Source: Acaryochloris marina MBIC11017 (GTDB taxonomy: Bacteria; Cyanobacteriota; Cyanobacteriia; Thermosynechococcales; Thermosynechococcaceae). From it: DNA of 32,000 nt. Where the stretch lies: NCBI RefSeq assembly GCF_000018105.1, contig NC_009925.1:4320001-4352000 (forward strand), in the 5' to 3' direction. Both the position numbers and the translations under genes were made by a program. Position 1 is the stretch's first letter; each line of letters opens with the position of its first letter. A model generated the notes under the pieces. It was not told the DNA's origin. It ran no database searches and was given only the letters and a program-made list of their open reading frames with translations. This document shows, piece after piece, positions 9,918 through 31,631 of this stretch.

Positions 9918-11039
9918 TTAATCCGAAGGCCCTAACAGTTGGGCAAGTGTTGTACTCTTGCCTTTAGAGTACTGATGGGCTGTGCGAACAAACTCAAGCT
10001 GGAGGCCCGGTTCGTAGGTCTGACCGTACTCAAACCATTCTTCAGGTGTAGGTAAGCTGAGCTCTATGGGTGAGATACTTGCTTCATCCCACGGTTCTCC
10101 GTGCACCTTCAGTGTATGTTGACCAACTACGATAACACGTAGCCAAGTTTCGCGAATGATCGAAAGGAGTAGACTTTGTTGCATCCAGGCCTCTGCTTCG
10201 CCAGCCATCTCAAACGTGTCGAAAATAAGGAGGGTGGGACGCGCAATCTTTTGGAGGGAAGTAAAAATTTGAGAAAGTTGACTAACAACCCTACCAGATG
10301 GGGCCTCAATCTTGAGGTTCTGAGCAAAAATCCGCAGTTCCGTGTCTATGTCTGTAGAACCTTTGAAGTCTAGACGTCCGCAAGTTAATCCCGGAATTTT
10401 AAATGCATTTCGGAGAAACTGCTTTGTTAAGTGGGTCTTACCTATTTCTGTCGGACCGTAGATTGGAAGTATTCTGAATGGTGCTCTATGCGTAATTAGC
10501 TTTGCAAAAGCAAGCTTCGCTTCACGATGATTTGCCACAGGCCAGTCAAGCGTAGGGGTGATATCAGGCCAACCCAGATCTTTAGAGTTTGTCGAAAGAT
10601 AGTACTCCTTCTTACGCCCTTCATTAATCGCAAGGCGACTGAGAATAAGTACAGCTGTTTCTTCAGGTGTCTTATCATCCAGATCAACAAAACCTGCAAG
10701 ACCAAACAATCCTGTAGGTTCGCAGTTGCCAAAGCGTAAGAGCATAACTTCTTCATTTTTACGCTGCATGAGAACACTATAAATAGCATTCCACTCAAGG
10801 CCGCACCACTTTTTCTCGTTGTAGTTATTGCATAGGATAGCAACGACCAGATCGGCTTCCTTCTCATAAAGCGAGGGAAGATAAAAGGCAAGATCGCTAC
10901 GGGCAAATTCTCCCTCGTGAAATTTATCGTAAAGAAGTTGTTCTTTGCTGAAGCGATCTGCAAGAAAGTTTGCTATTCGGGCAACAAAATCTCTGTTTTC
11001 TCCTGCAAATGAAAATGCGATGCGAAAACGTTTTTGCAT
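9918..11039 (-). CDS. TIR domain + P-loop (STAND/AAA-like) NTPase protein
   Basis: N-terminal bacterial TIR signature (RIAFSFAGENRDFV...LVVAILCNNYNEKKWCGLEWNAI, candidate catalytic Glu at residue 82). Walker A GPTEIGKT at residues 195-202 and Walker B LLIFDTFE at 270-277. 373 aa. Ends 5 nt before the TPR gene start. Confidence 0.85.
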   Translation of the reverse strand: MQKRFRIAFSFAGENRDFVARIANFLADRFSKEQLLYDKFHEGEFARSDLAFYLPSLYEKEADLVVAILCNNYNEKKWCGLEWNAIYSVLMQRKNEEVMLLRFGNCEPTGLFGLAGFVDLDDKTPEETAVLILSRLAINEGRKKEYYLSTNSKDLGWPDITPTLDWPVANHREAKLAFAKLITHRAPFRILPIYGPTEIGKTHLTKQFLRNAFKIPGLTCGRLDFKGSTDIDTELRIFAQNLKIEAPSGRVVSQLSQIFTSLQKIARPTLLIFDTFEMAGEAEAWMQQSLLLSIIRETWLRVIVVGQHTLKVHGEPWDEASISPIELSLPTPEEWFEYGQTYEPGLQLEFVRTAHQYSKGKSTTLAQLLGPSD

Positions 11040-15678: not shown

Positions 15679-17004
15679 TTGTCTAATTTGCAGCGATTTC
15701 GAAAGCTAACACTTTGGTTGTATCAACGGATAGCACTGATCCTGGTGCTGCTGCTTTGTATGGGTACGGGGGTTGCCCTCTCGGGCACCTTTGAGTTATC
15801 GGCAGATTTAGTGGATGCCCAAGCACTTCAACATGCGCGGGTTTCTGTGAATACGGTTAAGGAAGCTTGGCTCCTTTATAGCCAGTCTGTGGTGGGGCGC
15901 CTGGATGATGTAGATAATGTGACGGCAAGTCCTGAATACCATCAAATGGCAGGTGGTGTTCCAGTGCCTGCGACTTTCACAATTGAGTTGGGAGAACGGG
16001 TCAGCCAATCGGAAAGTGGTCTATCTTTTCGCTTGTTTAGTAACTACCCCTTTCCCAATCGCCAAGGGTCAGGGGGACCCCAAAATATATTTGAACAGAA
16101 GGCGCTGAAGTATTTACAGCGAAACCCGACTGGCTTCTACTACCAAAAAGCGAAAGAGAAGGATCACCTTTTGTTTCGCTATGCCGAAGCCGTCCAAATG
16201 GAACCGAGCTGTGTCAAGTGTCATAACACTTGGCCAGGGAGTCCTAAAACCGATTGGCAGGTGGGCGATGTACGAGGAGTTCTAGAAATCACTCAGCCCA
16301 TTGATGCCTTTGTGGCTCAGGCGCAAGAGGGGTTAAAGAGTATCTGGACCACATTGATTGTGATTGGCTGTCTGGCGGTCACCAGCCTGATCCTAGTGAT
16401 TAGCTACTTACAGAATAGTAATCAAATTTTGCAGGCTAAGGTTGAGGCAAAGACCGCTGCCCTAAATCGACTGGCCCATCTGGATGGCTTGACTGAACTG
16501 GCTAATCGGCGGTGTTTTGATCAGGTATTGGAGCAAGAATGGCGACGTATGCAGCGCCAACAGAAGCCTTTGGCTTTGATTATGTGTGATGCTGATTATT
16601 TCAAACGCTTTAATGATGCCTATGGTCATCAAGCAGGGGATCACTGTCTCCAAAAGATTGCTTGTGTCATCAACGCCAACGTCAGGCGGACGGGAGATTT
16701 AGCGACTCGTTATGGGGGCGAAGAGTTTGCAGTGATCATGCCCAATACCGATCATAAGCAGGCCTGTCTGGTGGCGGAAAAAATCCAGCGGGCGATGCTT
16801 GATTTGCGAATTGAGCATTTGCAGTCTGAGGTGGCCGATCATGTCACTTTGAGTATTGGGATTGCGAGCACTGTGCCCCAACCTATTTATCACCCCACTC
16901 ACTTGGTGGCGGTTGCGGATGCAGCTCTGTATGAGGCCAAGGTCAATGGCCGCAATCAAATTATTGTTAAACTTCCTGAGATAGTGGCAAGTCGGCGGAC
17001 TTAG
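15679..17004 (+). CDS. diguanylate cyclase (GGDEF) with periplasmic DUF3365-like haem-c sensor domain
   Basis: TM helix, ~190-aa loop with CVKCH (CxxCH, 16210..16224), second TM helix, coiled coil, then a GGDEF domain with GGEEF (16714..16728) and RTGD (RxxD) five residues upstream. TTG start. Confidence 0.85.
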
Positions 17005-19442
17005 CTTCTGAGGCTCACCTTGAACTGCTTTTCTAGGGCGTTACGCACCTTTTGGTGGATGGGGTTGACCTCTTCGTCCGTGAGGGTGCGATCGCACGCC
17101 TGATACAGCAATCGAAACGCCAAACTCCGCTGCCCTTCCGGCACATGTTCCCCTTGGTATTCATCAAACAGCTCAATGGCCGTCAGCAGGGATTGCTTAC
17201 GACCGCCTGCTGCCTTGCGAATCACTTTTTCGATTTCGGCAACAGTTACCTCCGTAGGAATAAAGAAAGCCAAATCGCGATCAGCAGCTGGATAGGTGGA
17301 ATAGGTAGAAAATAACGTTGCCTTCGTCTGCAAGCGGGCGAGCTGTTCTAGCAGTAAGTCTAAATTCAGCTCAAAGACATAGACCGTCGGCAAGTCTCGC
17401 TCCTGCTGCACTTGAGGATGGATCTGGCCGAAATAGCCAAGCTTCGCTCCCTGAGAAATCAGGGCCGCCGTGCATCCCGGATGGAGCCGCTGATCAGGAC
17501 AATCGGATTGAAACGTCACTGACAATCCCAACTGGCTTAGGACTCGCTCCAATAATCCCTTGGCTTCGAACCAGGTCATGGCATAGTCTTGATTGGCGGT
17601 GCGCATCCATTTGCCTTGGGCGGGGTCGCCCCCCAGAATGCCTGCAATGGCCCGAGCCTCTTTTAGTTTCTCGCCCTCTTTCCAGAACACTTGGCCGATT
17701 TCAAAGCCATTGAGCGCTCCATTCCCCTGTTCCCAGTTGCGTTGACAGGCATTCAGCAAGCTGGTCAGCATTTCCGTGCGCAGAGCAGAGAACTCCACCA
17801 ATAAGGGATTCACCACGACCACTTGGTCATCCCCCCCAGGTTTGACCCAGGAATAGTGGATTAGCTCAGTTAACCCCACTGCCCGGAAGGCTTCTCTGAG
17901 TTTACGGGCCAAAGCATCCTGACTGGATAGGGTGCCTAACTCGGTCTTAGCAGGTAAAGTCTCACAGAAATTGTCATAGCCATACAGTCGAGCAATTTCC
18001 TCTACCAAGTCGATTTCGCGTTCAATATCGCTATGGCGATGGGGCGGCACCTTGACAGTCCAGGTCTCAGGCCGATTGGTGGGGGTCGTGTCAAAACTGA
18101 GAGATTTTAAAATCGGCAGGATATCTTTGGCGGTTAAGTCTGTTGGCTCACCTTTCTTACCTTTGACTTTACCCAACACATGATTCACTCGATCCAAACG
18201 CAGCTCAATCGACCGTTCCAAAGACTTGCGATGGTCGGCTCGCTGTTGAGCAACCACCTTGGCCCCTGTCAAATCCACCAACAGCTGCAAGGCATGCAGG
18301 CAAGCAGTTTCTAATTGAGATTCATTGACCCCACGCTCGTAGCGGGCCGAGGCTTCACTGCGGAGGCTTTGACTACGGGCTGAGCGTCGAATGGTCAGAG
18401 AGTTGAATAGCGCAGCTTCCAGGACTAAGCGAGTACTCGTGTCTTTAACTTCAGTCTCCTCACCTCCCATTACGCCCCCTAAGGCCACTGGCTGATCATT
18501 AGCGGTAATCACCAGGGTTTGTTCCTGCAGCTTGCGCTTTTGGCTATCCAGGGTTGTGAGGGTTTCACCAGATTTGGCGAGACGTACGCCTAAGGTCAGG
18601 GGCTTTTTCTTTGCTAAAGTCTCCAAGGAATCAGCATCAAAGGCATGGAGGGGCTGTCCCCATTCCAGCAGGATGTAGTTGGTAATATCCACCACATTAT
18701 TAATGGGGCGAGTGCCAGCGGCGATTAGTCGCTGCTGCAGCCAGCCTGGAGAAGGGGCGATGGTGACATTTTCTAGTACCGTGGCGATATAGGCAGGGCA
18801 GGCTTCTGCGTCAGACAAGTCCACTTTGACGTCCTTGCCGGAGGGAATCTCCAATTTGGGGGTAGCAGGAAGTTTTAGCTTTGCCCCTGTCAGTGCCGTG
18901 ACTTCACGAGCCACTCCGACCATGCTGAGAGCATCGGCACGGTTCGCGGTGGAGGTCAGATCTAAGATGACGTCATCTAATCCTAAGAGGGGGCGGACAT
19001 CATTTCCAACTGCTACCCCATCCGTTTCAAAGCTATGGATGCCATCAATCTCGCTTTCTAAGCCCAGCTCGGTAAGGGAGCAAATCATTCCGGCAGAAGG
19101 TACACCTCGGAGTTTAGCTTTTTTGATTTTTAAGTCCGGTGTGGGTAAGTAGGTGCCTAAGGTAGCGACAGGTACATATAGTCCGGCTTTGACGTTGGGG
19201 GCACCACAGACAATTTGAGATGGCTCTGCTTCACCAATATCAACGGTACAAACGCGTAGTTTATCGGCATTGGGATGGGACTCACAGGTCAGCACTTTCC
19301 CCACCACAACGCCATCCGCCCAAGTGCGCAAATCTTCAATATCCTCAACCTCAAACCCAGCCAGAGTCAGTTGTTCTGCCAAATCTTCGGGTGACAGATC
19401 GATATCGACTAGATTTTTAAGCCAATTGAGAGAGATACGCAT
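17001..19442 (-). CDS. pheT: phenylalanine--tRNA ligase beta subunit
   Basis: 813 aa. N-terminal MRISLNWLK..., a tRNA-binding domain, B3/4 and B5 regions, and a C-terminal anticodon-binding-like domain. The match to PheT is unmistakable. Confidence 0.97.
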
Positions 19443-19793: not shown

Positions 19794-20018
19794 ATGCCCA
19801 AAAAGATCAAAGATTTGAAGCGGCTGTTGCAAAAGGCAGGGTTTGTATTGCTGCCCAAGCGGGGTAAAGGAAGTCACTCTTACTGGATTCATGAACTCTT
19901 GCCTAAGCCAGTTGTTTTGTCTGGCAAGGATGGTGGAGATGCAAAGCCCTACCAAGAGAAGCGAGTAGATGAAGCATTAAAGACGGTAGAACGGTTACAA
20001 GGTGAAGAAGATAAATGA
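19794..20018 (+). CDS. hicA: type II toxin-antitoxin system toxin, HicA family
   Basis: 74 aa. K.L.RLLQKAGF....KRGKGSHSYW.H......VVLSGKDG.D.KPY matches the HicA/YcfA pattern. Located directly upstream of a HicB-like gene. Confidence 0.8.
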   Translation: MPKKIKDLKRLLQKAGFVLLPKRGKGSHSYWIHELLPKPVVLSGKDGGDAKPYQEKRVDEALKTVERLQGEEDK

Positions 20019-20057
20019 AAGACGGTAGAACGGTTACAAGGTGAAGAAGATAAATGA
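19980..20057 (+). repeat. perfect 39-bp tandem duplication (2 copies) spanning the hicA stop / hicB start
   Basis: aagacggtagaacggttacaaggtgaagaagataaatga occurs at 19980..20018 and again at 20019..20057 (gacgg at 19982 and 20021). Confidence 0.95.
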
Positions 20058-20260
20058 AATACAGCATTCTTATTCAGTGGTCTGATTCTGATCAGTCTTA
20101 TATTGCAAGCTTGCCAGAGTGGGGAAGATTCGCATCAACCCACGGTGACACCTATGAAGAAGCTTTGGAAAATGCCAGAGAAGTTTTAGAGGATCTCATC
20201 TACGCCTATGGGCAAATGGGGAGGCCCTTACCTTTACCAAAAGTTCTACAGGTTGCGTAA
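20054..20260 (+). CDS. hicB: type II toxin-antitoxin system antitoxin, HicB family (short form)
   Basis: 68 aa. MKYSILIQWSDSDQSYIASLPEW....THGDTYEEALENAREVLEDLI matches the HicB/UPF0150 N-terminal fold pattern. Gene order is hicA then hicB. Confidence 0.75.
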   Translation: MKYSILIQWSDSDQSYIASLPEWGRFASTHGDTYEEALENAREVLEDLIYAYGQMGRPLPLPKVLQVA

Positions 20261-20411: not shown

Positions 20412-20924
20412 TTGTTATTGGACGAGCCACATAATCCGTTTTATTTCAATACAATTCCACAGAAAGTTGTAGTGTCTAATTTCGTAGGAAAGTGTCCATA
20501 TTGTTCTCATCGAATTAAGGCTTGGACAGATACCCCACACGGCTCAGAGTATAACTGTCCTCGATGTTCCAGGACCTTCGATGTCTTGCTGACAGACTTC
20601 AACAATCATTCTCCACACGAAATTAGTGAGCACTTCCCTTGCTTAGTGTTCAAGATGGGGGAACTTACAGCTTTTACGGTGAGAAAAGAACAGAGATTTT
20701 GTGAAGTGTGTGGAACTTTCTATAGGCAAGACGAGAATGTGTGTCCCAATCTACTTGAGGAGATTGTGTATTGGTACCACCACCCCGAAGTGATTTCCAA
20801 CAAGACAGACGAACTAGACCCAGATTTAGTACAGGGAGAAATCAAAGTGTATCTTGCCGCTAATTTTAAAGACAGAGTTGTACGTAGAATCATTAACGGA
20901 AACTTGAAAAAGAAGAAAGAGTAG
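20412..20924 (+). CDS. hypothetical Cys-rich protein with two zinc-ribbon-like motifs
   Basis: CPYC-x19-CPRC, then CEVC-x11-C. Lys-rich tail. TTG start and AT-rich sequence. No family recognised. Confidence 0.45.
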   Translation: MLLDEPHNPFYFNTIPQKVVVSNFVGKCPYCSHRIKAWTDTPHGSEYNCPRCSRTFDVLLTDFNNHSPHEISEHFPCLVFKMGELTAFTVRKEQRFCEVCGTFYRQDENVCPNLLEEIVYWYHHPEVISNKTDELDPDLVQGEIKVYLAANFKDRVVRRIINGNLKKKKE

Positions 20925-21194
20925 AGCGCCTTGTCAGGAAACAGTTAACGTCAGAGCCGTTTCAAGTTCTTGAGAGCAAATCTGAAGCGGGTATTATTTC
21001 TCAAATGCTCTTTGTATCTAAAGAATCTTAGTTTTCCTGAATAAGCTCTGGTGAGCTGGGAAAGGCCCCATATTTATTTAGGTGCAAAAAGCAGAATTAA
21101 TAGGTGCAAAAATCAGCGATAGATGCTGATTCAACTCATCATATTAAAGTCCCATTTCTGCAAGAGCTAGTACCGATGCGGGAAGCCTGAGGTT

Positions 21195-22595
21195 ATGTCA
21201 GCTAACAACGATATGTTTGAGCAATCCCATCGCCAGGCCGGAGATCTTATCGCGGAGCGATACCGCCTCCTTTCTGTACTCGGTAAAGGAGGGGCTGGCA
21301 TTACCTATGCCGCAGAAGATATTTATACCCAACAGGAGTTTGCCCTCAAAGAACTATCCCTAAAGGGCATGGGGGATTGGAAACAGCTAGAACTGTTTGA
21401 ACGCGAAGCCAAGGTTTTGTCTCAACTCAATCATCCAGCCATCCCCAACTATATCGACTACTTTCAAACCGATACTGAAGAAGATCGGTGGTTCTATATC
21501 GTTCAGGAATTAGCCCCCGGTCAGTCCCTAGCCGACTTGGTGAAAGAAGGATGGCGGGCTAGCCAAGCTGAAGTGCGTCAGTTAGCCTTACAAATTCTGG
21601 ACATTCTGAAATACTTACATGAGCTAACCCCACCGATTATTCATCGGGATATTAAGCCACAAAATATTATCCGCAGTGAAGAGGGTCAGATTTACCTGGT
21701 GGACTTCGGTGCTGTCCAAAATGTCTATCACAACACGATGGTGGGCAGTACAGTGGTGGGGACCTACGGCTATATGGCCCCTGAGCATTTCCGGGGGAAA
21801 GCGGTTCCCGCCACCGACTTGTACTCTCTCGGAGCAACGCTGCTGTTTTTGCTCACCCACTGTTCCCCTGCTGACTTGCCGCAAAAGCGACTCAAGATAG
21901 ATTTTCGTGCTGCGGTGCAGCTCAAGCCAGACTTTGCGGACTGGCTCGATCAACTGCTGGAACCTGCCGTGGAGGATCGGTTGGCCTCGGCCCAAGACGC
22001 GATTGACGCGCTTAAAGCACCGCCACGACGGGCGCAGTCTACATCTATTACCCCACCCAAAGCCAAAGCCCTGCAGCGAAAACCGATGGGCAGTAAGGTA
22101 AATCTACAACGCACAAGGACCCATCTAAACATTGACATTCCCCCCATTGGCTTACGGGGAGAAACTTTGGGGATTGGCTGTTTTGCTGTGTTTTGGAATG
22201 GGTTTATTTTTGTGTGGACTGCGGGTGCGCTTGCGGCTGGCGCTCCTTTTATCTTTCCCTTATTTTCCATTCCGTTTTGGATTGTTGGTCTTGGTATGGC
22301 GGGAGCGGCCATCTTTGGGATGGCTGGACGAACGCACCTAGAAATTAATCCGCAAACCTTTGAGTTAGTTTGGCAAGTCAAGTCTTTAGGATTCCGATAT
22401 CGTCGCAGTGGACGCACAGAAGATATTGAAGGCATTAAGCTCACGGTTGCCTATACCAGTAATGATCGCCCGGTTAAGGGCTGTACCCTATTGGAAGGCG
22501 TTAACACCCATCGATTTGGTACCATGCTCAGCCCTAGTGAAAAAGGATGGTTAGTGGATGAAATTGGTGATTTTTTAATGTCACAGCAACACTGA
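21195..22595 (+). CDS. Ser/Thr protein kinase with C-terminal TM-hairpin module (paralog 1, subtype A)
   Basis: GKGGAG (GxGxxG), FALKEL Lys, LFEREA Glu, HRDIKPQN, DFG, GTYGYMAPE. Two predicted TM helices at about residues 324-377. GAGG Shine-Dalgarno site. Confidence 0.92.
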   Translation: MSANNDMFEQSHRQAGDLIAERYRLLSVLGKGGAGITYAAEDIYTQQEFALKELSLKGMGDWKQLELFEREAKVLSQLNHPAIPNYIDYFQTDTEEDRWFYIVQELAPGQSLADLVKEGWRASQAEVRQLALQILDILKYLHELTPPIIHRDIKPQNIIRSEEGQIYLVDFGAVQNVYHNTMVGSTVVGTYGYMAPEHFRGKAVPATDLYSLGATLLFLLTHCSPADLPQKRLKIDFRAAVQLKPDFADWLDQLLEPAVEDRLASAQDAIDALKAPPRRAQSTSITPPKAKALQRKPMGSKVNLQRTRTHLNIDIPPIGLRGETLGIGCFAVFWNGFIFVWTAGALAAGAPFIFPLFSIPFWIVGLGMAGAAIFGMAGRTHLEINPQTFELVWQVKSLGFRYRRSGRTEDIEGIKLTVAYTSNDRPVKGCTLLEGVNTHRFGTMLSPSEKGWLVDEIGDFLMSQQH

Positions 22596-22689
22596 GCTGT
22601 TGCTTAGGAACTGCTAACCGACCCAGGCCACTATTCTCTCAATCAAGGTAAGACACAATGGAGATATCTCGTTTAGGACAAGTAACTCC

Positions 22690-24069
22690 ATGCTTGAGCC
22701 GATGTCTCACCAAATTGGAGATCTGATTGCTGGAAGGTATCGCGTGCAATCCATCTTGGGACAGGGTGGTACGGGTATAACCTTTGCTGTGAAAAATGTT
22801 TACAATTACCAGCATTATGCACTCAAAGCATTGTCTCTTAAAGGAATCCAAGAGTGGAAACAGTTAGAACTGTTTGAGCGAGAAGCTAAAGTTCTATCTC
22901 AACTGAATCATCCAGCGATTCCGAACTACATTGACTACTTCCAAATCGATATTGAAGCGGATCGGTGGTTTAATATTGTTCAAGAACTGGCACCAGGCAA
23001 ATCTCTCGCAGATTGGGTGAAAGATGGATGGAACCCTAGCCAAGAAAAAGTGCGTTGTTTGGCATTTCAAATTCTGGATATCCTGAAATATCTACATGAA
23101 CTAACACCACCGATTATTCATCGGGACATTAAACCGCAAAACATTATCCGCAGTGACAAAGGTCAGATTTACTTAGTGGACTTTGGTGCTGTGCAAAATG
23201 TCTATCAAAGCACGATGATGGGCAGTACGGTGGTGGGCACTTATGGTTACATGGCTCCTGAACATTCTCAAGGGAAAGTTGTGCCTGCCACCGACTTATA
23301 TTCTCTAGGGGCAACGCTGTTATTTTTGCTCACCCATTGTTCCCCTACCGATTTACCTCAAAAAAGGTTGAAGATTGATTTTCGCTCTACTGTCCAACTT
23401 GAACCTCAGTTTGCTGATTGGCTCGACCTGATGCTAGAGCCTGCTATAGAAGATCGCTTAGACTCTGCTCAAGCAGCGATTGACGTTCTTCCAGTTCTAC
23501 GACGCGTTTCTCCCTTATCAATTGCCCCACCCAAAGCCATCGCTCCTCCTCGGCAACCAATGGGGAGCAGGGTCAAGTTAAAAAGAACAAGAACCCACCT
23601 TGTACTTGAAATCCCCCCTGCAGGTTTAAAGTTTGAAACCGTTGGATTGGGCTGTTTTGCCCTATTTTGGAATGGGCTAATTCTTCTTTGGACTTTAGGT
23701 GCCGTGGCTGTTGGTGGTTCTTTCATTATTCCCTTATTGTCTATCCCGTTTGGACTTATGGGTATTGTGATGGCCGGAGCTGCACTCTATGGGATGGCAG
23801 GATGCGAACGTCTAGAAATTAGTCCCCAAACCTTTGAATTGGTCTGGCAAGTGGCGACATTCAGACTTCGATATCGTCGTAGTGGTCGAACAGCTGACAT
23901 CGATGGTATTAAGCTGACAACGACCCATACCAGAAATAATCGCCCTGTTAAAGGCTGCACTTTGCTAGAAGGTGCTAACGCACACATATTTGGCATTATG
24001 CTCAGTCCTCGTGAAAAAGTATGGCTAGTTGCGGAAATTGGTGACTTTTTAACGTCACGGCAACAATAA
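22690..24069 (+). CDS. Ser/Thr protein kinase with C-terminal TM-hairpin module (paralog 2, subtype A)
   Basis: Same motif set (GQGGTG, YALKAL, HRDIKPQN, DFG, MAPE) and the same C-terminal module. Confidence 0.92.
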   Translation: MLEPMSHQIGDLIAGRYRVQSILGQGGTGITFAVKNVYNYQHYALKALSLKGIQEWKQLELFEREAKVLSQLNHPAIPNYIDYFQIDIEADRWFNIVQELAPGKSLADWVKDGWNPSQEKVRCLAFQILDILKYLHELTPPIIHRDIKPQNIIRSDKGQIYLVDFGAVQNVYQSTMMGSTVVGTYGYMAPEHSQGKVVPATDLYSLGATLLFLLTHCSPTDLPQKRLKIDFRSTVQLEPQFADWLDLMLEPAIEDRLDSAQAAIDVLPVLRRVSPLSIAPPKAIAPPRQPMGSRVKLKRTRTHLVLEIPPAGLKFETVGLGCFALFWNGLILLWTLGAVAVGGSFIIPLLSIPFGLMGIVMAGAALYGMAGCERLEISPQTFELVWQVATFRLRYRRSGRTADIDGIKLTTTHTRNNRPVKGCTLLEGANAHIFGIMLSPREKVWLVAEIGDFLTSRQQ

Positions 24070-24159
24070 ATTAGGAAATCATGCAAACAGAGTTAGCATG
24101 ATTTTGAACGGGCGAAGGTGAAGGTTAGGAGTAAGCCAGAATGATAGGGCACTTCTTTG

Positions 24160-25536
24160 ATGACCTATTTCGTGTTTGAGAACCTACCTCACCAAGCTGG
24201 AGATTTAGTTGCAGAACGATATCGCTTAATATCTGTGCTGGGTCAAGGTGGATTTGGAGTAACTTACACAGCTGAAGATATTGATACTCACCAACAATTC
24301 GCTATCAAGCAAATGTCTTTAAAGGGCATGACCAATTGGAAGCAATTGGAATTATTTGAGCGAGAGGCACAAGTCTTATCTCAACTGGAACATCCAGCTA
24401 TTCCCAATTACATTGATTATTTTCAAACCGATACTGAAGGAGATCGTTATTACTATATTGTTCAAGAGCTAGCGTCAGGTAAATCTCTGGCAGAATTAGT
24501 TGGTCAAGGCTGGCAAGCCACCCAAGTAGAAGTAAAACAGATAGCCTTGCAGGTTTTGGAAGTTTTGAAGTACCTGCACGCGTTAACACCCCCGATCATT
24601 CATCGAGACATTAAACCCCAAAATATCATTCGAAATGATGATGGCCAGATATATCTAGTTGATTTTGGTGCTGTGCAAAATGTCTATCACAGCACGATGA
24701 TGGGTAGCACAGTGGTGGGTACTTATGGTTACATGGCGCCTGAACATTTCCAAGGGAAGGCTATCCCTGCGACCGACCTTTATTCTCTGGGGGCAACGTT
24801 GCTGTTTTTACTCACCCATTGCTCTCCTGCTGATTTACCTCGAAAACGTCTGAAAATTGATTTTGGCTCAGTTGTAAAGCTTGACCCTGCCTTTGCCGAT
24901 TGGCTTGATCTTATGCTGGAGCCAGTGGTCGAGGATCGTTTCTGCTCAGCTCAGGACGCCATCTCAGTTCTATTACAGCCAACAGTCAGTCGCTCTCTTG
25001 CTGGTGATGTAGCACAAACCATTCAGCAGCCACCTGGCAGCAAAATTAATTTGTATAAGACGAAAACTTCGGTGACCATTCATATCCCACCAGTTGGCTT
25101 GCCCTGGAAATCTGTTCAACAAAAGTGTTTGAAGCTTTGGTTTGATTTGTTAATGCTAATTATCTTGTTAATGCTACTTGAACATATTATGCCCCCGCTT
25201 GTTTTAGGGGGTGTATCCATTATTAGCGGGATGATTTGGGTTGGAATGATGGCTTCTGTGTTGTTTGATATTGTTGGACATACTCATCTCAAGATTGATC
25301 CAAAGCATTTTCGTTTGCTCTGGAGGTTAAAGTTCCCAGGTCTTAAGTATGTTCGTGGAGGGCGCACTGCAGATTTGATAAGAGTTAAGTGTATAACGAC
25401 CTCAAGAAGTAAGGCCAAATACTGCGCTCTTATCACTAAAGGTAATCAATATAATTTTGGAATGCAGCTTAGCTCTAGCGAAAAGAACTGGTTAGTGAAA
25501 GAAATAGGTGATTTTTTGATATCTCAACAGAACTGA
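24160..25536 (+). CDS. Ser/Thr protein kinase with C-terminal TM-hairpin module (paralog 3, subtype B)
   Basis: GQGGFG, FAIKQM, HRDIKPQN, DFG, MAPE. C-terminal module of the variant type (HTHLKIDPKHFRLLW..KYCALIT). ATG at 24160; a TTG lies at 24157. Confidence 0.9.
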   Translation: MTYFVFENLPHQAGDLVAERYRLISVLGQGGFGVTYTAEDIDTHQQFAIKQMSLKGMTNWKQLELFEREAQVLSQLEHPAIPNYIDYFQTDTEGDRYYYIVQELASGKSLAELVGQGWQATQVEVKQIALQVLEVLKYLHALTPPIIHRDIKPQNIIRNDDGQIYLVDFGAVQNVYHSTMMGSTVVGTYGYMAPEHFQGKAIPATDLYSLGATLLFLLTHCSPADLPRKRLKIDFGSVVKLDPAFADWLDLMLEPVVEDRFCSAQDAISVLLQPTVSRSLAGDVAQTIQQPPGSKINLYKTKTSVTIHIPPVGLPWKSVQQKCLKLWFDLLMLIILLMLLEHIMPPLVLGGVSIISGMIWVGMMASVLFDIVGHTHLKIDPKHFRLLWRLKFPGLKYVRGGRTADLIRVKCITTSRSKAKYCALITKGNQYNFGMQLSSSEKNWLVKEIGDFLISQQN

Positions 25537-25628
25537 ACGATGGACTGGAGAACGGCTGATTGCTCTAGATTCTCCATCTATGCCAAGGTACAAGACACAG
25601 CAGAATTGCGTTTCTAATGTAGCGCTTC

Positions 25629-27002
25629 ATGAGCATGAAGATTTCACATCCGATGGGTGACCTTATCGCTGAAAGGTATCGTGTGCGATCCGTTTTAGGG
25701 CAAGGTGGTGCTGGTATCACCTTTGCCGTGGAGGATGTTCATACTCACCAGTCTTATGCCCTTAAAGTCTTGTCTCTCAAAGGGATTCAGGATTGGAAAC
25801 AGCTAGAACTGTTTGAACGAGAAGCCAAGACGCTATCACAGCTGGATCATCCGGCCATTCCCAATTACATTGATTACTTTCAAGCTGATACCGCAGGCAA
25901 TCGGTGGTTTTATATTGTTCAAGAATTAGTTCCTGGCCACTCCCTCGCAGAACTTGTGCAGCAAGGATGGCGGGCAAACCAGACTGAAGTGCGTCAATTA
26001 GCTTTGCAGATTCTGGACATTCTGAAATATTTACATGAGCTGACCCCACCGATTATTCATCGAGATATTAAGCCGCAAAATATTATCCGTAATGGCGACG
26101 GCCAGATTTACTTGGTGGACTTTGGTGCTGTACAAAACGTCTATCACAACACGATGGTGGGCAGTACGGTGGTGGGCACCTATGGCTATATGGCTCCAGA
26201 GCATTTTCAAGGAAAGGCAGTGCCTGCGACCGACCTCTATTCTCTGGGGGCAACGCTGCTATTCTTGCTCACTCATTGTTCTCCCGCTGATTTACCTCAA
26301 AAACGTCTAAAAATTGACTTTCGCTCCGTCGTTCATCTTGAACCTGCTTTTGCGGATTGGCTGGATCAAATGTTGGAGCCTGCTCTAGAAGATCGGTTTG
26401 TTTCGGCCCGGGATGCGATGGATGGGCTTACTGCTCCACCCCGACGAGTGAAGCCACCTGCCAAGCCTCGCTCTCGGACTCCACGTCGGCAACCGAGGGG
26501 TAGTAAGGTTACCTTGAAACGGACAGAGACTCAGCTAATTGTTGATATTCCTCCCACTGGTTTGCGAGTACAAACGTTAGGGATGGGTTGCTTTGTGGTG
26601 TTTTGGAATGGGGGTGTTTTAGCTGGGACTTTCGCGTGTTTTGCAGTGGGTAATTTTGCCATTCTCCCTTTTTTCATTCCATTTTGGATTATGGGGAGTA
26701 TTTTAGTTGGTCTGACCCTCTGTGGGATAGCTAGCAGTACCCATCTAGAAATTAATCCTCTAACCTTTGAATTAGTCTGGCAAATCAAGTCTTTAGGGCT
26801 TCGATATCGTCGTAGTGGACGCACGTTGGAGATCAAACAAGTAAAACGAACGGATGCCTACAACATTAATGATCGCCCTGTGCAGGGGTGCACTCTCTTG
26901 GAAGGTTCTAAAAAACATAAATTTGGGACCATGCTGAGCCCTAGTGAACAAGCATGGCTCATGGAAGAAATTAGTGACTTTTTGAGATTGCGAAACCGCT
27001 GA
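25629..27002 (+). CDS. Ser/Thr protein kinase with C-terminal TM-hairpin module (paralog 4, subtype A)
   Basis: GQGGAG, YALKVL, HRDIKPQN, DFG, MAPE. Subtype A C-terminal module. Confidence 0.92.
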   Translation: MSMKISHPMGDLIAERYRVRSVLGQGGAGITFAVEDVHTHQSYALKVLSLKGIQDWKQLELFEREAKTLSQLDHPAIPNYIDYFQADTAGNRWFYIVQELVPGHSLAELVQQGWRANQTEVRQLALQILDILKYLHELTPPIIHRDIKPQNIIRNGDGQIYLVDFGAVQNVYHNTMVGSTVVGTYGYMAPEHFQGKAVPATDLYSLGATLLFLLTHCSPADLPQKRLKIDFRSVVHLEPAFADWLDQMLEPALEDRFVSARDAMDGLTAPPRRVKPPAKPRSRTPRRQPRGSKVTLKRTETQLIVDIPPTGLRVQTLGMGCFVVFWNGGVLAGTFACFAVGNFAILPFFIPFWIMGSILVGLTLCGIASSTHLEINPLTFELVWQIKSLGLRYRRSGRTLEIKQVKRTDAYNINDRPVQGCTLLEGSKKHKFGTMLSPSEQAWLMEEISDFLRLRNR

Positions 27003-27097
27003 CCAATTTGCTTGAAAAGGACTGATTGCGCCAGATCACCAACTTATTATTTGGGGCAAGACACAATGGAAGCATTGCGTTGTTACCCTAGCGCTTC

Positions 27098-28462
27098 ATG
27101 ATCACGCAAATTTCACACCAGATTGGCGACCTTATCGCTGAACGGTATCGTGTGCGATCCGTTTTGGGGCAAGGTAGCACTGGTATCACCTTTGCTGTGG
27201 AGGATGTTCAGACTCATCAGCAGTATGCCCTTAAAGCTTTGTCCCTCAAGGGAATTCAAGATTGGAAGCAGTTAGAACTGTTTGAGCGAGAAGCGAACGT
27301 TCTCTCGCAACTCGATCACCCATCAATTCCCCATTACATCGACTATTTCCAAACGGATACTGCAGAAGATCGGTGTTTTTATATTGTTCAAGAATTAGCA
27401 CCAGGTAAATCTCTTGCCTGTCTGGTGGAGGATGGATGGCGAGCGAGTCAGGCGGAGGTCCGTCAACTCGCTTTGAAAATTTTAGAGACATTGCAATATC
27501 TTCATGAATTACACCCACCGATTATTCATCGGGATATTAAACCGCAAAATATTATCCGTAATGGCGACGGCCAGTTCTATTTAGTCGATTTTGGAGCAGT
27601 GCAAAATGTCTACTACAACACGATGATGGGCAGTACGGTTGTAGGCACTTATGGGTATATGGCTCCTGAACATTTCCAAGGTAAGGCTGTCCCTGCGACG
27701 GATCTCTATTCTTTGGGAGCAACGCTACTGGCGCTGCTCACCCATTGCTCTCCTGCTGAATTGCCCCGGAAACGTCTGAAAATTGACTTTCGCTCAGTCG
27801 TAAGGCTCGACCCTGCTTTTGCCAATTGGCTGGATCATCTCATCGAACCTGCGGTGGAAGATCGGTTTGTTTCGGCCCGGAATGCGATCGCAGCCCTAAG
27901 ACAACCAGGCATCCCACGACAATCTTCTTTACCTCAAAAAGATAGATCTGCCCCGATTCAGCCAGTGGGCAGCAATATCCAATTACACAAAACGCAGACT
28001 ACACTGACTGTTCATATTCCCCCCGTCGGTTGGCATTGGGAAACGTTGAAACAGGAGTGTCTACAACTTTGGGTTAATGTCTGTGTCCTCGTTGTATTTT
28101 TATGGGCCTTTAAAGCGGCCATGCCCCCACTAATATTTGGAGTTGCGGCCTGTCTCGGCGGCATGATTGGGATTGGAATGCTGAACTCTGTGGTGTTTGC
28201 CATTGGGGGCCATACGCATCTCAAAATCGCTCCTCAGGCTTTTCGGTTATCCTGGCGGGTTCATATACCTGGTCTACAATACTCTCGCAGAGGGCGCACT
28301 GTAGACTTGATCGGGATTAAGTTAACCACGTCTCCTAAGAGTAAAGTCAAATACTGCACCCTATTCACTACAGATCATCAATATAGTTTTGGAACACATC
28401 TAAGCCCTTCTGAGCAGGCTTGGTTAGTGGAGGTCATTGGTCATTTTTTGAGGCCAGAATAA
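27098..28462 (+). CDS. Ser/Thr protein kinase with C-terminal TM-hairpin module (paralog 5, subtype B)
   Basis: GQGSTG, YALKAL, HRDIKPQN, DFG, MAPE. Subtype B C-terminal module (HTHLKIAPQAFRLSW..KYCTLFT). Confidence 0.92.
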   Translation: MITQISHQIGDLIAERYRVRSVLGQGSTGITFAVEDVQTHQQYALKALSLKGIQDWKQLELFEREANVLSQLDHPSIPHYIDYFQTDTAEDRCFYIVQELAPGKSLACLVEDGWRASQAEVRQLALKILETLQYLHELHPPIIHRDIKPQNIIRNGDGQFYLVDFGAVQNVYYNTMMGSTVVGTYGYMAPEHFQGKAVPATDLYSLGATLLALLTHCSPAELPRKRLKIDFRSVVRLDPAFANWLDHLIEPAVEDRFVSARNAIAALRQPGIPRQSSLPQKDRSAPIQPVGSNIQLHKTQTTLTVHIPPVGWHWETLKQECLQLWVNVCVLVVFLWAFKAAMPPLIFGVAACLGGMIGIGMLNSVVFAIGGHTHLKIAPQAFRLSWRVHIPGLQYSRRGRTVDLIGIKLTTSPKSKVKYCTLFTTDHQYSFGTHLSPSEQAWLVEVIGHFLRPE

Positions 28463-28554
28463 TCCTGGCTCGGCCCAGCGGGTTGTGCTAGATCACCCAC
28501 CGCTCTTGTGGGGCAAGCCACAATAAAGACAGCCCATTACCTATAAGGCAGCTC

Positions 28555-29976
28555 ATGCTTCAGCGGACCTCACACCAGATTGGCGACCTCATTGCTGAAC
28601 GGTATTTAGTGCAATCCGTGTTGGGGCAAGGAAGCAGTGGCATGACCTTCGCAGTTGAAGATATTCAGACTCGTCAGCTGTATGCCCTTAAGGCTTTGTC
28701 CCTTAGAGATATTCAGGACTGGAAACAGCTTGAACTGTTTGAACGAGAAGCCCAGGTCTTATCCCAGCTCGATCATCCAGCAATTCCTCACTACATTGAC
28801 TACTTTCAAGCGGATACTGACCAAGACCGATGGTTTTATATTGTCCAAGAATTAGCGTCCGGTCAATCCCTGTCAGACTGGGTTAAGGAGGGCTGGCGGG
28901 CCAGCCCGGCTGAAGTGCGTCAATTGGCAGTGCAGATTTTAGGCATTCTTCAATATCTCCATGCATTGAGTCCACCCATTATTCATCGGGATATCAAGCC
29001 CCAGAATATTATCCGTAGCGAAGATGGTCAAATTTATTTGGTGGATTTTGGAGCAGTCCAAAATATCTATCGCAATACGGCGGGCAGTACCGTTGTTGGT
29101 ACCTATGGCTATATGGCTCCCGAGCATTTCCAGGGTCAAGCAGTCCCGGCGACGGATCTCTATTCTTTAGGGGCGACGCTTCTCTTTCTCCTGACCCATT
29201 GTTCTCCTGTTGATTTGCCCCAACAGCGGCTCAAGATCGATTTTCGCCAAGCCGTTCAACTCCAGCCAGGGTTCGCCGATTGGCTGGATTGTCTGCTCGA
29301 ACCTGCTGTGGAAGATCGCTTGAGTTCGGCTCAGGAGGCATGGGATGCATTGGCAGCGTTAACTCGGCCCTCTGCCAAGCCGGTTCGTCCCAAATCCTTA
29401 TCCCAACGGAAAGTAGAGGCATTGCGGCAACAGCCCAAAGGCAGTAAGGTGCGGCTTCAAAAAACATCGTCTCAACTGACCGTTGATATTCCTCCGAGTG
29501 GGTTGCGGGGCAAAATTCTAGGGATTGGCCTGTTTGCCTTGTTCTGTGAAGGGATTGCCTTTGCGATCGCAGCCAGTGTTGCCACCAGTCTATTCAACGG
29601 TCAAGTCCCTCCTCTGTTTGCGTTTGTCGCGATTCTACCCCTACTGATTTCAGGATCAGGGCTGTTGATAGCGGTCTTGTTCGGTATTGCCGGGAGTATC
29701 CAGTTACAGATCAACTCTCAAACCTTTCAACTGTGTTGGCAAATTCAGCGCTTGGGGCTGCGACATCAAATATCGGGCAGCACAGCAGCATTGGATGGGG
29801 TTAAACTAACGACGGCCTATAAAAGTAATGACCGACCCGTTGCCGCCTGCACCCTGATTGAAGGAGACAAACTCCATAAATTTGGTACTCTGCTTAGCCT
29901 GCCAGAAAAAGAATGGCTCGTTCGGGAAATTAGTGATTTTTTATGGTGTCAGCCACGCCAGAAACAGACCGTCTAA
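28555..29976 (+). CDS. Ser/Thr protein kinase with C-terminal TM-hairpin module (paralog 6, divergent subtype A)
   Basis: GQGSSG, YALKAL, HRDIKPQN, DFG, MAPE. Subtype A-like C-terminal module with a longer linker and tail. Confidence 0.92.
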   Translation: MLQRTSHQIGDLIAERYLVQSVLGQGSSGMTFAVEDIQTRQLYALKALSLRDIQDWKQLELFEREAQVLSQLDHPAIPHYIDYFQADTDQDRWFYIVQELASGQSLSDWVKEGWRASPAEVRQLAVQILGILQYLHALSPPIIHRDIKPQNIIRSEDGQIYLVDFGAVQNIYRNTAGSTVVGTYGYMAPEHFQGQAVPATDLYSLGATLLFLLTHCSPVDLPQQRLKIDFRQAVQLQPGFADWLDCLLEPAVEDRLSSAQEAWDALAALTRPSAKPVRPKSLSQRKVEALRQQPKGSKVRLQKTSSQLTVDIPPSGLRGKILGIGLFALFCEGIAFAIAASVATSLFNGQVPPLFAFVAILPLLISGSGLLIAVLFGIAGSIQLQINSQTFQLCWQIQRLGLRHQISGSTAALDGVKLTTAYKSNDRPVAACTLIEGDKLHKFGTLLSLPEKEWLVREISDFLWCQPRQKQTV

Positions 29977-30149: not shown

Positions 30150-31631
30150 ATGAACTCCGGTTTCCCTAACCCTTATGCCTTTGAACATTCTGATCCAGAG
30201 ACCTTAGAAGCTGAACTGGATCAGACCATTCAGGACTTTGAGCAAATGCAGGCAGAATTGGGGTATCAGCAAGCCCATTCTGCTCTAGAGACCTTGGTGG
30301 ATAAGCTGGATCTCTCTCCCCGAGAGCGAGCGGGACTAGAAACCGAAATCAATTCCCTGCAATCCATGCTCGACAAGCTAGAAAAACAGGTGGTTCATAT
30401 CGCTGTGTTTGGCATGGTCAGTCGAGGCAAATCTTCCCTCCTCAATGCCTTGTTGGGACAGGCCGTGTTTGCCACCGGGCCGGTGCATGGGGTGACGCAA
30501 CAGAGCCAGCAGGCCAGCTGGTTTGTGGATCAAGACTCTGGCGAAGAGGCCATTCGCGTCTCTTTGCAAGGGGTGGGGCAATCCCGGATTGAGCTGATAG
30601 ACACCCCTGGGATTGATGAAGTCGATGGTGAGGTGCGAGAGCGGCTGGCCCGCCAAATTGCCCAGCAGGCCGATTTGATTTTATTTGTGATTGCGGGGGA
30701 TATGACCAAAGTCGAGTTTGAGGCTCTATCGGAGTTGCGGCAGGCCAGTAAACCGATTCTGCTAGTGTTCAACAAAGTCGACCAATATCCCGAAGCAGAT
30801 CGCAACGCCATTTACGAAAAAATTCGAGATGAGCGAGTGCGAGAGCTGCTGTCTGCCGATGAGATTGTCATGGCCTCGGCAGCCCCCCTGGTGGCCCAAG
30901 CCATCCAATATCCTGATGGGCGCTTGGGGGCAGAACTGGTGCCCGGCCCCCCCCAAGTCCAGGATCTAAAGTTGAAAATCCTAGAAGTGCTGGAGCGAGA
31001 AGGTAAGTCACTGGTGGCCCTGAATACCATGCTCTATGCCGATGATATTAACGAGCAGCTGATTGAGCGGAAGATGCGGATCCGCGATCGCAGTGCGAAT
31101 CAGATTATTTGGCGCGGCGTCATGGCCAAAGCGGTCGCCATTGCCCTTAATCCCGTTACCGTTGTGGATGTGCTCAGCAGTGCCGCCATCGACATCGCCA
31201 TGATTCTGACCCTTTCAAAGCTTTATGGCATTTCCATGACCCAAAAAGGAGCCGTCGATTTACTACGCAAAATTGCCTTAACAATGGGCGGCGTTGGTGC
31301 TACGGAACTATTAACCACTCTAGGGCTAAGTTCCCTCAAAGGACTCTTAAGCTTAGCGGCTCCAGCAACCGGGGGAGCCTCCCTGTTGCCCTACGTTTCT
31401 GTGGCCGTTTCTCAAGCAGCTGTGGCGGGGGTTTCTTCCTATGGCATTGGTGAAGTTACCAAACGGTACCTCGTCAATGGGGCCTCCTGGGGACCCAATG
31501 GGCCAAAAACCGTGGTTAATGAGATTCTCTCTTCCCTCGATCAGGCCACTATTTTGAACCGGATCAAAACCGAGCTGCAGGAAAAACTAGATATTGCTGA
31601 TGACAGCACATCTATGGTGGAAGAGGGCTAA
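30150..31631 (+). CDS. GTP-binding protein with C-terminal DUF697-like membrane-associated domain
   Basis: G1 GMVSRGKSSLLNALLG, G3 DTPGIDE, G4 NKVD. The C-terminal ~170 aa are Gly/Ala-rich and hydrophobic, as in the YcjF/DUF697 family. 493 aa. Confidence 0.85.
   Translation: MNSGFPNPYAFEHSDPETLEAELDQTIQDFEQMQAELGYQQAHSALETLVDKLDLSPRERAGLETEINSLQSMLDKLEKQVVHIAVFGMVSRGKSSLLNALLGQAVFATGPVHGVTQQSQQASWFVDQDSGEEAIRVSLQGVGQSRIELIDTPGIDEVDGEVRERLARQIAQQADLILFVIAGDMTKVEFEALSELRQASKPILLVFNKVDQYPEADRNAIYEKIRDERVRELLSADEIVMASAAPLVAQAIQYPDGRLGAELVPGPPQVQDLKLKILEVLEREGKSLVALNTMLYADDINEQLIERKMRIRDRSANQIIWRGVMAKAVAIALNPVTVVDVLSSAAIDIAMILTLSKLYGISMTQKGAVDLLRKIALTMGGVGATELLTTLGLSSLKGLLSLAAPATGGASLLPYVSVAVSQAAVAGVSSYGIGEVTKRYLVNGASWGPNGPKTVVNEILSSLDQATILNRIKTELQEKLDIADDSTSMVEEG

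Follow-up and report, generated by a model that had tools for sequence, protein, structure and literature searches.

A strain-variable tandem array of membrane-anchored Hanks-type kinases in Acaryochloris marina MBIC11017

Six tandem kinases and their membrane anchor

We analyzed a 32,000-nt stretch of Acaryochloris marina MBIC11017 (contig NC_009925.1, positions 4,320,001 to 4,352,000; hereafter, the window), which carries an array of six paralogous, membrane-anchored Ser/Thr kinase genes. The genes, named here K1 to K6, lie head to tail on the plus strand within positions 21195-29976 and are annotated in this strain as "serine/threonine protein kinase" (ABW29297-ABW29302). Our open reading frame (ORF) calls and spacer lengths agree with the original prediction, made from the DNA letters alone, of six same-strand ORFs of 454-473 aa about 90-95 nt apart. 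From K1 to K6, the products measure 466, 459, 459 or 458, 457, 454, and 473 aa, and the spacers between the genes 94, 90, 92, 95, and 92 nt. At the DNA level, the array is a repeat of six copies with a period of 1457-1482 nt and 60-85% identity. The genes are the following, where TM stands for transmembrane:

21195 to 22595, plus strand: K1, Pfam Pkinase E 2.4e-42, the conserved founder copy
22690 to 24069, plus strand: K2, with the anchor module nearest that of K1 and an ortholog of ~70% identity in strain Moss Beach
24160 to 25536, plus strand: K3, ATG at 24160 and in-frame TTG at 24157, with a divergent TM hairpin and an anchor module that clusters with that of K5
25629 to 27002, plus strand: K4, seen only in the MBIC10699/MBIC11017 lineage
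27098 to 28462, plus strand: K5, with a divergent TM hairpin and orthologs of 79-84% identity in S15, NIES-2412, and Moss Beach
28555 to 29976, plus strand: K6, the terminal copy, a mosaic

Public annotations disagree on the start of K4 (25629-25680), giving products of 439, 449, 455, or 457 aa, and three in-frame ATGs stand inside its first 9 codons.

All six products match Pfam Pkinase (PF00069) with E values of 2e-39 to 1e-44 and scores of 136-153 bits, the gathering cut-off being 31.7 bits. Each one has an intact GxGxxG P-loop, the A[LI]K lysine, the alphaC glutamate of LFEREA, HRDIKPQN including the catalytic asparagine, DFG, APE, and the activation-loop sequence GSTVVGTYGY. By their motifs, K1 to K6 are therefore catalytically complete Hanks-type Ser/Thr kinases. 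Both the Pfam matches and the motif alignment bear out the earlier statement that every Hanks catalytic element is kept in all copies; the alignment revealed no disabling substitutions, and pseudogenes are ruled out in the array of the window, since all motifs and reading frames are intact. In the PDB, the kinase domains match PknB, PknA, and StkP (E 1e-23 to 1e-27). The six proteins resemble the PknB/Stk1 PASTA kinases in the catalytic domain and in being anchored to the membrane, but the NCBIfam profile PknB_PASTA_kin (NF033483) gives 137-155 bits against a cut-off of 450, covers the kinase domain only, and finds no PASTA domain.

The domain layout was taken from an AlphaFold2 (AF2) model of K1, built on an alignment of 83 sequences and having a predicted local distance difference test score (pLDDT) of 85. 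In this model, the parts of the protein are as follows:

aa 17-275: kinase domain
aa ~276-302: disordered linker of ~30 aa, basic and proline-rich, with 280-292 as the disordered stretch in the model
aa 303-315: beta-hairpin
aa 322-347: TM1
aa 353-377: TM2
aa 378-441: six strands of a PH-like domain
aa 447-465: C-terminal helix

The loop between TM1 and TM2 has ~5 residues, and both ends of the membrane hairpin are predicted to be cytoplasmic. Such a short loop leaves no space for an external sensor domain; the alignment and the model thus concur with the original prediction that none of the kinases has an extracytoplasmic sensor. PknB, in contrast, has a single TM helix and an extracellular PASTA sensor, where in K1-K6 a re-entrant TM hairpin would start and end in the cytoplasm, with no domain outside.

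The C-terminal ~170 aa had been singled out for a separate search, which turned up a large family outside Pfam with an EROS-like module of two TM helices and a PH-like domain. Modelled on its own (last 172 residues, pLDDT 86), the anchor has as its top Foldseek match in the PDB chain 8kei_D, which is EROS (E 4.5e-6, TM-score 0.52/0.54, 174 aligned columns); many PH domains rank below it. EROS, or CYBC1, is a chaperone of NOX2 composed of two antiparallel TM helices and a PH domain of six strands and a helix; it grips NOX2 by the TM helices and the PH domain, and the authors of that work call it an ortholog of the photosystem I factor Ycf4 (bioRxiv 10.1101/2023.09.11.557130). The predicted anchor shows the same order of elements, namely a TM hairpin followed by a cytoplasmic PH-like beta-sandwich and a C-terminal helix. 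The alignment with EROS runs over the full length, from the two antiparallel TM helices through the six strands and the terminal helix on the cytoplasmic side. The two differ in that identity is only 14%, and that the anchor has an extra beta-hairpin before TM1 and is fused to a kinase. In its predicted fold, the anchor thus looks like EROS. No Pfam EROS or Ycf4 match was obtained for it; the only Pfam hit was a sub-threshold one to DUF2244 (E 0.087), and a sequence search of the PDB with the anchor profile gave no matches.

A word-indexed search with the anchor alone retrieved 5 proteins only, and an exhaustive profile search was then run. At E <= 1e-3 it matched 2084 representative clusters, and at E <= 1e-10 still 761. 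The module may stand alone, in proteins of 170-250 aa of which some (such as P0152) begin with a zinc ribbon, be doubled or tripled, or follow a kinase. By these profile matches, the anchor is a large family of its own that is absent from Pfam. TM2 of K1, LFSIPFWIVGLGMAG, is nearly unchanged in a kinase-less protein with 31% overall identity, which suggests that the helices serve as an interaction surface and not as a passive anchor. Within the array, the TM signature FWNG...FSIPFW is kept in K1, K2, and K4 and lost or replaced in K3, K5, and K6. The anchor modules form three deep clades with 100% support and differing TM signatures, and these are kept across strains.

Age, copy number, and recombination of the copies

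The other copies share 60-73% of their amino acids with K1, and the copies are 57-73% identical to one another in nucleotides. By the Nei-Gojobori method, the synonymous divergence (dS) is at least 1, that is, saturated, in 15 of 15 pairs, even in the near-invariant core. The ratio of nonsynonymous divergence (dN) to dS between paralogs is 0.10-0.20 for whole genes and 0.015-0.075 for the core. Paralog dS (1.25-1.9) exceeds the dS of 0.4-0.7 between strains for orthologs of the flanking genes pheT and GTPase-DUF697, so the duplications are older than the split of the sequenced strains. The six copies are old duplicates, intact and under purifying selection, in line with the earlier view that they are the product neither of recent amplification nor of decay. 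Saturated dS rules out recent amplification, the pairwise comparison finding dS near zero in none of the 15 pairs. An assembly artefact is also ruled out, given that the array is present in two complete genomes and several independent read assemblies and that dS is saturated. Gene conversion within the genome, a check that had likewise been proposed, was dropped as a candidate: a silent-codon run test on the six copies detected no significant tracts (smallest p 0.043 of 15 uncorrected tests).

The copy number and synteny comparison that had been suggested revealed a fixed slot with 1 to 6 copies among Acaryochloris genomes. Among the Acaryochloris genomes recovered, the slot lies between two conserved genes:

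17001 to 19442, minus strand: pheT, phenylalanine-tRNA ligase beta subunit, the upstream boundary
30150 to 31631, plus strand: GTPase and DUF697 membrane protein (DUF697 E 1.4e-39, MMR_HSR1 E 3.9e-18), the downstream boundary

Orthologs of the GTPase-DUF697 gene (97-98% identity) come straight after the last kinase in other strains; as a conserved partner, this gene was dropped because it adjoins the kinases within Acaryochloris only. Six copies occupy the slot in both MBIC10699 (AP026075.1, ~1.18-1.21 Mb) and MBIC11017, and four each in S15 and NIES-2412. Moss Beach has four copies, an insertion sequence (IS) element, and what is left of a K6-type gene (76 aa), CCMEE 5410 and one metagenome-assembled genome (MAG) have two copies, and other MAGs have one. 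The subsets held by strains differ (K1+K6; K1+K5+X+K6; K1+K2+K3+K5), and the order K1-K2-K3-(K4)-K5-K6 is kept wherever orthologs occur. Orthologs of K1, with 83-94% identity, were found in every Acaryochloris genome examined. In the tree, all Acaryochloris copies form one clade that excludes the single-copy genes of Almyronema, Sphaerothrix, and Halomicronema, which makes the array a genus-specific expansion. The original prediction had placed it in an accessory block beside a hicAB module. The adjacency to hicAB stands, but only K2-K6 and hicAB vary, while the slot itself is conserved.

Two deviations from the common layout were seen. In Moss Beach (CP071717.1), an IS element with a DDE_3 transposase separates copies 2 and 3 of the array (L055 12950-14047), and the 76-aa K6-type remnant, with internal deletions, stands just before the GTPase gene (L055 17081-17311). 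These two features are direct evidence of ongoing loss in the array. In MAG IP29b_bin.148 (L007) and an uncultured Acaryochloris (L009), no GTPase-DUF697 gene follows the single K1-type gene within 10 kb, and in the former pheT is also missing upstream; either the slot is rearranged in those lineages or the contigs are chimeric.

The copies evolve at different rates. K1 orthologs change slowly between Acaryochloris strains (dN 0.03-0.04), and K6 orthologs have a dN of 0.09-0.22, three to five times the K1 rate, at dN/dS of 0.09-0.18. K1 is the founder and is universally retained; K2-K6 are individually dispensable and evolve more quickly. The regions differ in dN/dS: the kinase has 0.02-0.14, the linker 0.05-0.8, and the hairpin and TM part 0.04-0.5, and in no region does the value exceed 1. 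K2-K6 diverge most in the linker and TM hairpin.

Separate trees were made for the N-lobe, C-lobe, and anchor segments, and their conflicts show that kinase parts and anchor parts have recombined. Bootstrap for the K5-type, K6-type, and K3+K5 anchor clades is 100% in the anchor tree and 0% in that of the N-lobe, and the K5-type gene of Moss Beach joins the K6-type genes in the N-lobe tree (96%). The second copy of CCMEE 5410 groups with the bin137 copy in the kinase (96-100%) and with K6_MB in the anchor (100%); to the bin137 copy it is 95-99% identical in the kinase and 66-72% in the anchor. K6 of the window shows the same kind of mosaic, as its anchor (last 120 codons) is 94-98% identical in nucleotides to this CCMEE 5410 copy, its kinase part only ~70%, and its N-lobe is nearest to NIES-2412 copy 3. 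Along one gene, dS between "orthologs" runs from 0.07 to saturation. Unequal crossing-over or homologous exchange has therefore altered the copy number (1-6) and made kinase/anchor chimeras. The idea of six separately evolving lineages therefore holds for their age and for purifying selection; their independence does not, the segment trees being in conflict at 96-100% bootstrap.

Spacers, relatives, and neighboring genes

The internal spacers share short conserved boxes. Their positions are given below with that of a candidate promoter of the array:

22596 to 22689, plus strand: K1-K2 spacer, 94 nt, conserved box TAAGACACAATGGA at 22649-22662
24070 to 24159, plus strand: K2-K3 spacer, 90 nt, the most divergent, with a degenerate box only
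25537 to 25628, plus strand: K3-K4 spacer, 92 nt, box at 25591-25604
27003 to 27097, plus strand: K4-K5 spacer, 95 nt, upstream box GATTGCGCCAGATCACCAA at 27024-27042 and CAAGACACAATGGA at 27057-27070
28463 to 28554, plus strand: K5-K6 spacer, 92 nt, boxes at 28481-28499 and 28514-28527
20970 to 20997, plus strand: candidate array promoter TTGAGA-16-TATTAT, 10/12 positions, the sole sigma-70-like match upstream of K1

In the internal spacers, the boxes come in the order GATTGC.CTAGATCACCAA, then CAAGACACAATGGA, then ATTGCGTTT. They recur in paralogous spacers and across strains despite the saturated silent sites, are absent upstream of K1, and are degenerate upstream of K3. We favor the reading that they are an internal promoter or operator duplicated with each gene, because CACAAT fits the -10 hexamer xAxxxT and the second box would lie at about -35 to -45. 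The sigma-70-like site at 20970-20997 is a consensus match only, and such sites are rarer in the region than in shuffled sequence. An RNA element in the spacers was dropped (0 RNAalifold pairs, no Rfam family).

Full-length relatives of 445-475 aa, with 55-60% identity, occur throughout filamentous and unicellular cyanobacteria. In other genera, 24 of 32 loci have a second kinase gene of this subfamily on the same strand, abutting or overlapping the first; the partner is often a kinase-TM-ankyrin protein encoded directly upstream. Tandem pairing is thus the norm in the subfamily, and the copies by which Acaryochloris has extended it are all of the anchor type. In Microcoleus and Calothrix (L017 7437-11356; L029 7884-11362), the gene for a paralogous kinase-TM-ankyrin-repeat protein (843 and 690 aa, respectively) ends no more than 30 bp before the family member, and P0030 is a kinase-ankyrin-kinase fusion. 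The ankyrin-kinase neighbors and this fusion point to a conserved two-kinase unit in the subfamily. Another homolog, P0104 (507 aa), has ~50 aa of repeated PLDKGGWGDGEA units inserted after the catalytic loop and ahead of DFG, and its HRDIKPQN motif reads HRDIQPRN; this variant may be inactive or regulated. No full-length family member was found on 72,556 plasmids (PLSDB), and a plasmid or mobile origin was dropped for this reason.

In the window, no PP2C, FHA, or response-regulator gene was found, consistent with the earlier statement that the usual kinase partners are missing from it. The genes that flank the array are ordinary chromosomal ones. Between pheT and K1 lies the toxin-antitoxin-like pair:

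19794 to 20018, plus strand: hicA, PF07927 on a 74-aa product
20054 to 20260, plus strand: hicB-sized ORF of 68 aa with no Pfam match, hicB by position only

The hicAB pair is absent from S15, NIES-2412, and Moss Beach. Since only some strains have it, it represents an independent insertion between pheT and the array, outside the kinase unit. At the hicA/hicB junction (19979-20059), a perfect 39-bp tandem duplication (2.1 copies) duplicates the region of the hicA stop; the two genes are 36 nt apart here and overlap by 4 nt in CCMEE 5410 (L052 5735-5959 / 5956-6162). An ORF between hicAB and K1 (20412-20924, plus strand) contains several CxxC pairs with weak zinc-ribbon matches. It is 98% conserved in CCMEE 5410 and annotated only as an 89-aa protein (20655-20924). 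Further upstream, a TIR-domain protein (9918-11039, minus strand; TIR_2 E 3.5e-10) lies directly upstream of a co-oriented 774-aa TPR protein (7588-9912), which has a weak Effector-associated-domain-4 match at its C-terminus. This pair, ~10 kb from the array, may be of a conflict or NAD-depletion type.

Possible roles of the array

We give a probability of roughly 60% to the following reading of the locus as a whole: one conserved family of cyanobacterial membrane-anchored Hanks kinases has expanded in tandem in this lineage, with copies gained and lost over time, and its members carry EROS-like docking anchors. The evolutionary half of this reading is well supported, while the mechanism is inferred. 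Each kinase would hang on a flexible linker from an EROS-type docking anchor rather than from a sensor, and the anchor would set it beside a particular membrane protein or complex. The paralogs may have split or shifted their docking specificity with the same catalytic core kept, and the array would then supply several kinases addressed to different sites. Input could come via protein contacts in the membrane or the cytoplasm, or via trans-phosphorylation among neighboring paralogs; pairing of paralogs is plausible, given that the genes of relatives elsewhere almost always abut in twos. The spacer boxes probably furnish each internal gene with its own regulatory or expression element.

Several results weigh against this explanation. 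The docking function is drawn from a predicted fold, with a TM-score of ~0.5 and 14% identity to EROS. We found neither a client protein nor a phosphorylation target for the array kinases, nor any expression data, and no conserved non-kinase neighbor outside Acaryochloris that would point to a partner. The anchor does not match Pfam Ycf4 (PF02392) at E <= 10, and hhalign gives a probability of 0.7-15%, collinear over the C-terminal strands and helix. As for an expression element, RNAalifold predicts 0 pairs in the spacers, Rfam returns one chance snoRNA match only (E 0.61), and the spacers contain neither sigma-70 promoters nor intrinsic terminators, the count in the region being below that of shuffled sequence. 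Finally, relaxed constraint, and not new specificity, could account for the speed at which the TM hairpin and linker have diverged.

The original prediction had offered two other explanations. One is an immunity-type array of diversified sensors or decoys. In the form considered here, kinases like PD-T4-6, Stk2, or those of MADS/BREX would each detect a different invader. The PADLOC profiles PD-T4-6 and mad6 do match (E 1e-52 to 1e-61), the copy number is polymorphic, the copies are recombination mosaics, the accessory ones evolve more quickly, and hicAB, IS elements, and the TIR-plus-TPR pair lie within ~11 kb. However, the strong likeness to PD-T4-6, MADS MAD6, and BREX PglW is confined to the Hanks kinase domain, with more than 25 PD-T4-6 models matching together, and NCBIfam MADS6 (NF047741) and PglW (NF033442) give 123-134 bits and 57-65 bits against cut-offs of 460 and 990. 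What is shared is thus a generic fold, and only this general kinase-domain similarity lies behind the idea of immunity or decoys. Moreover, the family is distributed vertically in cyanobacteria, and the array, a genus-specific clade, sits in a slot between housekeeping genes, a core and not an island-like context; plasmids lack full-length members, dN/dS is below 1 in all regions, and other strains have neither hicAB nor the IS elements in the slot. We therefore judge a defence role very unlikely. The other proposal is a hetero-oligomeric membrane complex; taken here as a single obligate complex of the six proteins, with the array kept for stoichiometric co-expression, it seems to us similarly improbable. 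Hanks kinases commonly dimerise, and the same strand, short uniform spacers, and lack of terminator-like sites between the genes would suit such a complex, as would the abutting pairs elsewhere, which suggest that hetero-association is common in the kinase subfamily. Nevertheless, the nearest strains have 1, 2, or 4 copies, the subsets differing among them, which makes an obligate six-member complex unlikely. In one strain, K6 has decayed and an IS element interrupts the array, and the most divergent parts of the proteins are the membrane segments that would make the core of the complex.

Redundancy, with the copies kept for dosage or by chance and their divergence reflecting neutral drift within functional limits, is also unlikely, if less so. 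It fits the unusually many duplicates that Acaryochloris genomes keep (PMC3156569, PMC11086944), the dispensability of individual copies across strains, and the near-invariant catalytic core. Yet redundant copies are not expected to stay intact until dS is saturated with dN/dS as low as 0.03-0.2, nor to maintain three deep anchor clades, each with 100% support and its own TM signature, across strains; the papers on duplication also give tandem duplicates as ~3% of the total and do not list the array genes (PMC3156569, PMC11086944).

A further possibility, which we regard as quite unlikely, is that the anchor is a true relative of Ycf4/EROS and marks widespread "chaperone-docked" kinases on photosynthetic or respiratory complexes, the array being a recombining set of cassettes. 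There is no Ycf4 structure in the PDB, and A. marina has a Ycf4 of its own, AM1_1082 (PMC5295598). If true, chaperone-docked kinases would phosphorylate membrane complexes or assembly intermediates, one catalytic core would be re-addressed to different clients by exchangeable anchors, and the array could follow the photosystem, antenna, and cytochrome paralogs, which are unusually multiplied in Acaryochloris.

Returning to a tandem expansion of anchored kinases, the nearest known proteins are those of the class cbSTKI-TM, named for cyanobacterial TM-containing kinases, which includes SpkF (slr1225) of Synechocystis (PMC2176072). K1-K6 fit this class, having a kinase and TM helices and no other Pfam domain. 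SpkF is an active kinase and an integral protein of the plasma membrane (PMC2176072, PMC11863333); compared by its published description, it shares with the array proteins an N-terminal Hanks kinase, C-terminal membrane helices, and the lack of a recognised accessory domain. It differs in being a single gene with an almost wild-type knockout, whereas Acaryochloris has six paralogs with an EROS-like anchor of two TM helices and a PH-like domain.

Nor is the layout without precedent, contrary to the original prediction that no such system had been described. The array is annotated in MBIC11017, kinase pairs are present at the majority of loci in other genera, and tandem paralogous Hanks kinases are on record in Trichodesmium (Tery_0640-0643) and Anabaena (alr0709/alr0710) (PMC2176072), as well as in myxobacteria (PMC11032199, citing Perez et al. 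2008). As here, these are adjacent same-strand Hanks paralogs that arose by lineage-specific tandem duplication. The earlier arrays were, however, reported to consist of recent duplicates whose accessory domains are different (DUF323, GAF/His-kinase), unlike that of Acaryochloris with its six copies, saturated dS, different anchor, copy-number polymorphism, and segment shuffling. A literature search by UniProt accession returned no paper that mentions the six proteins, and those papers on Acaryochloris duplication and transcriptomes that we examined do not discuss them. What appears to be undescribed is the EROS-like nature and the breadth of the anchor family, the regular pairing of the kinases, and the copy-number and mosaic dynamics of the locus. 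We see in the array no new kind of system but the expansion of a gene family, which recombines and varies from strain to strain.

Cyanobacteria have many Hanks kinases, few of them with known inputs or targets. An EROS-like anchor in place of a sensor domain gives a testable idea, namely that such kinases are positioned by docking to membrane complexes. The locus also offers a natural experiment: one conserved founder is joined by as many as five dispensable paralogs, the anchors come in three types, strains differ in having 1, 2, 4, or 6 copies, and kinase/anchor chimeras occur naturally. It is a clear bacterial example of an old tandem family that evolves by gain, loss, and exchange of segments, and not by recent amplification.

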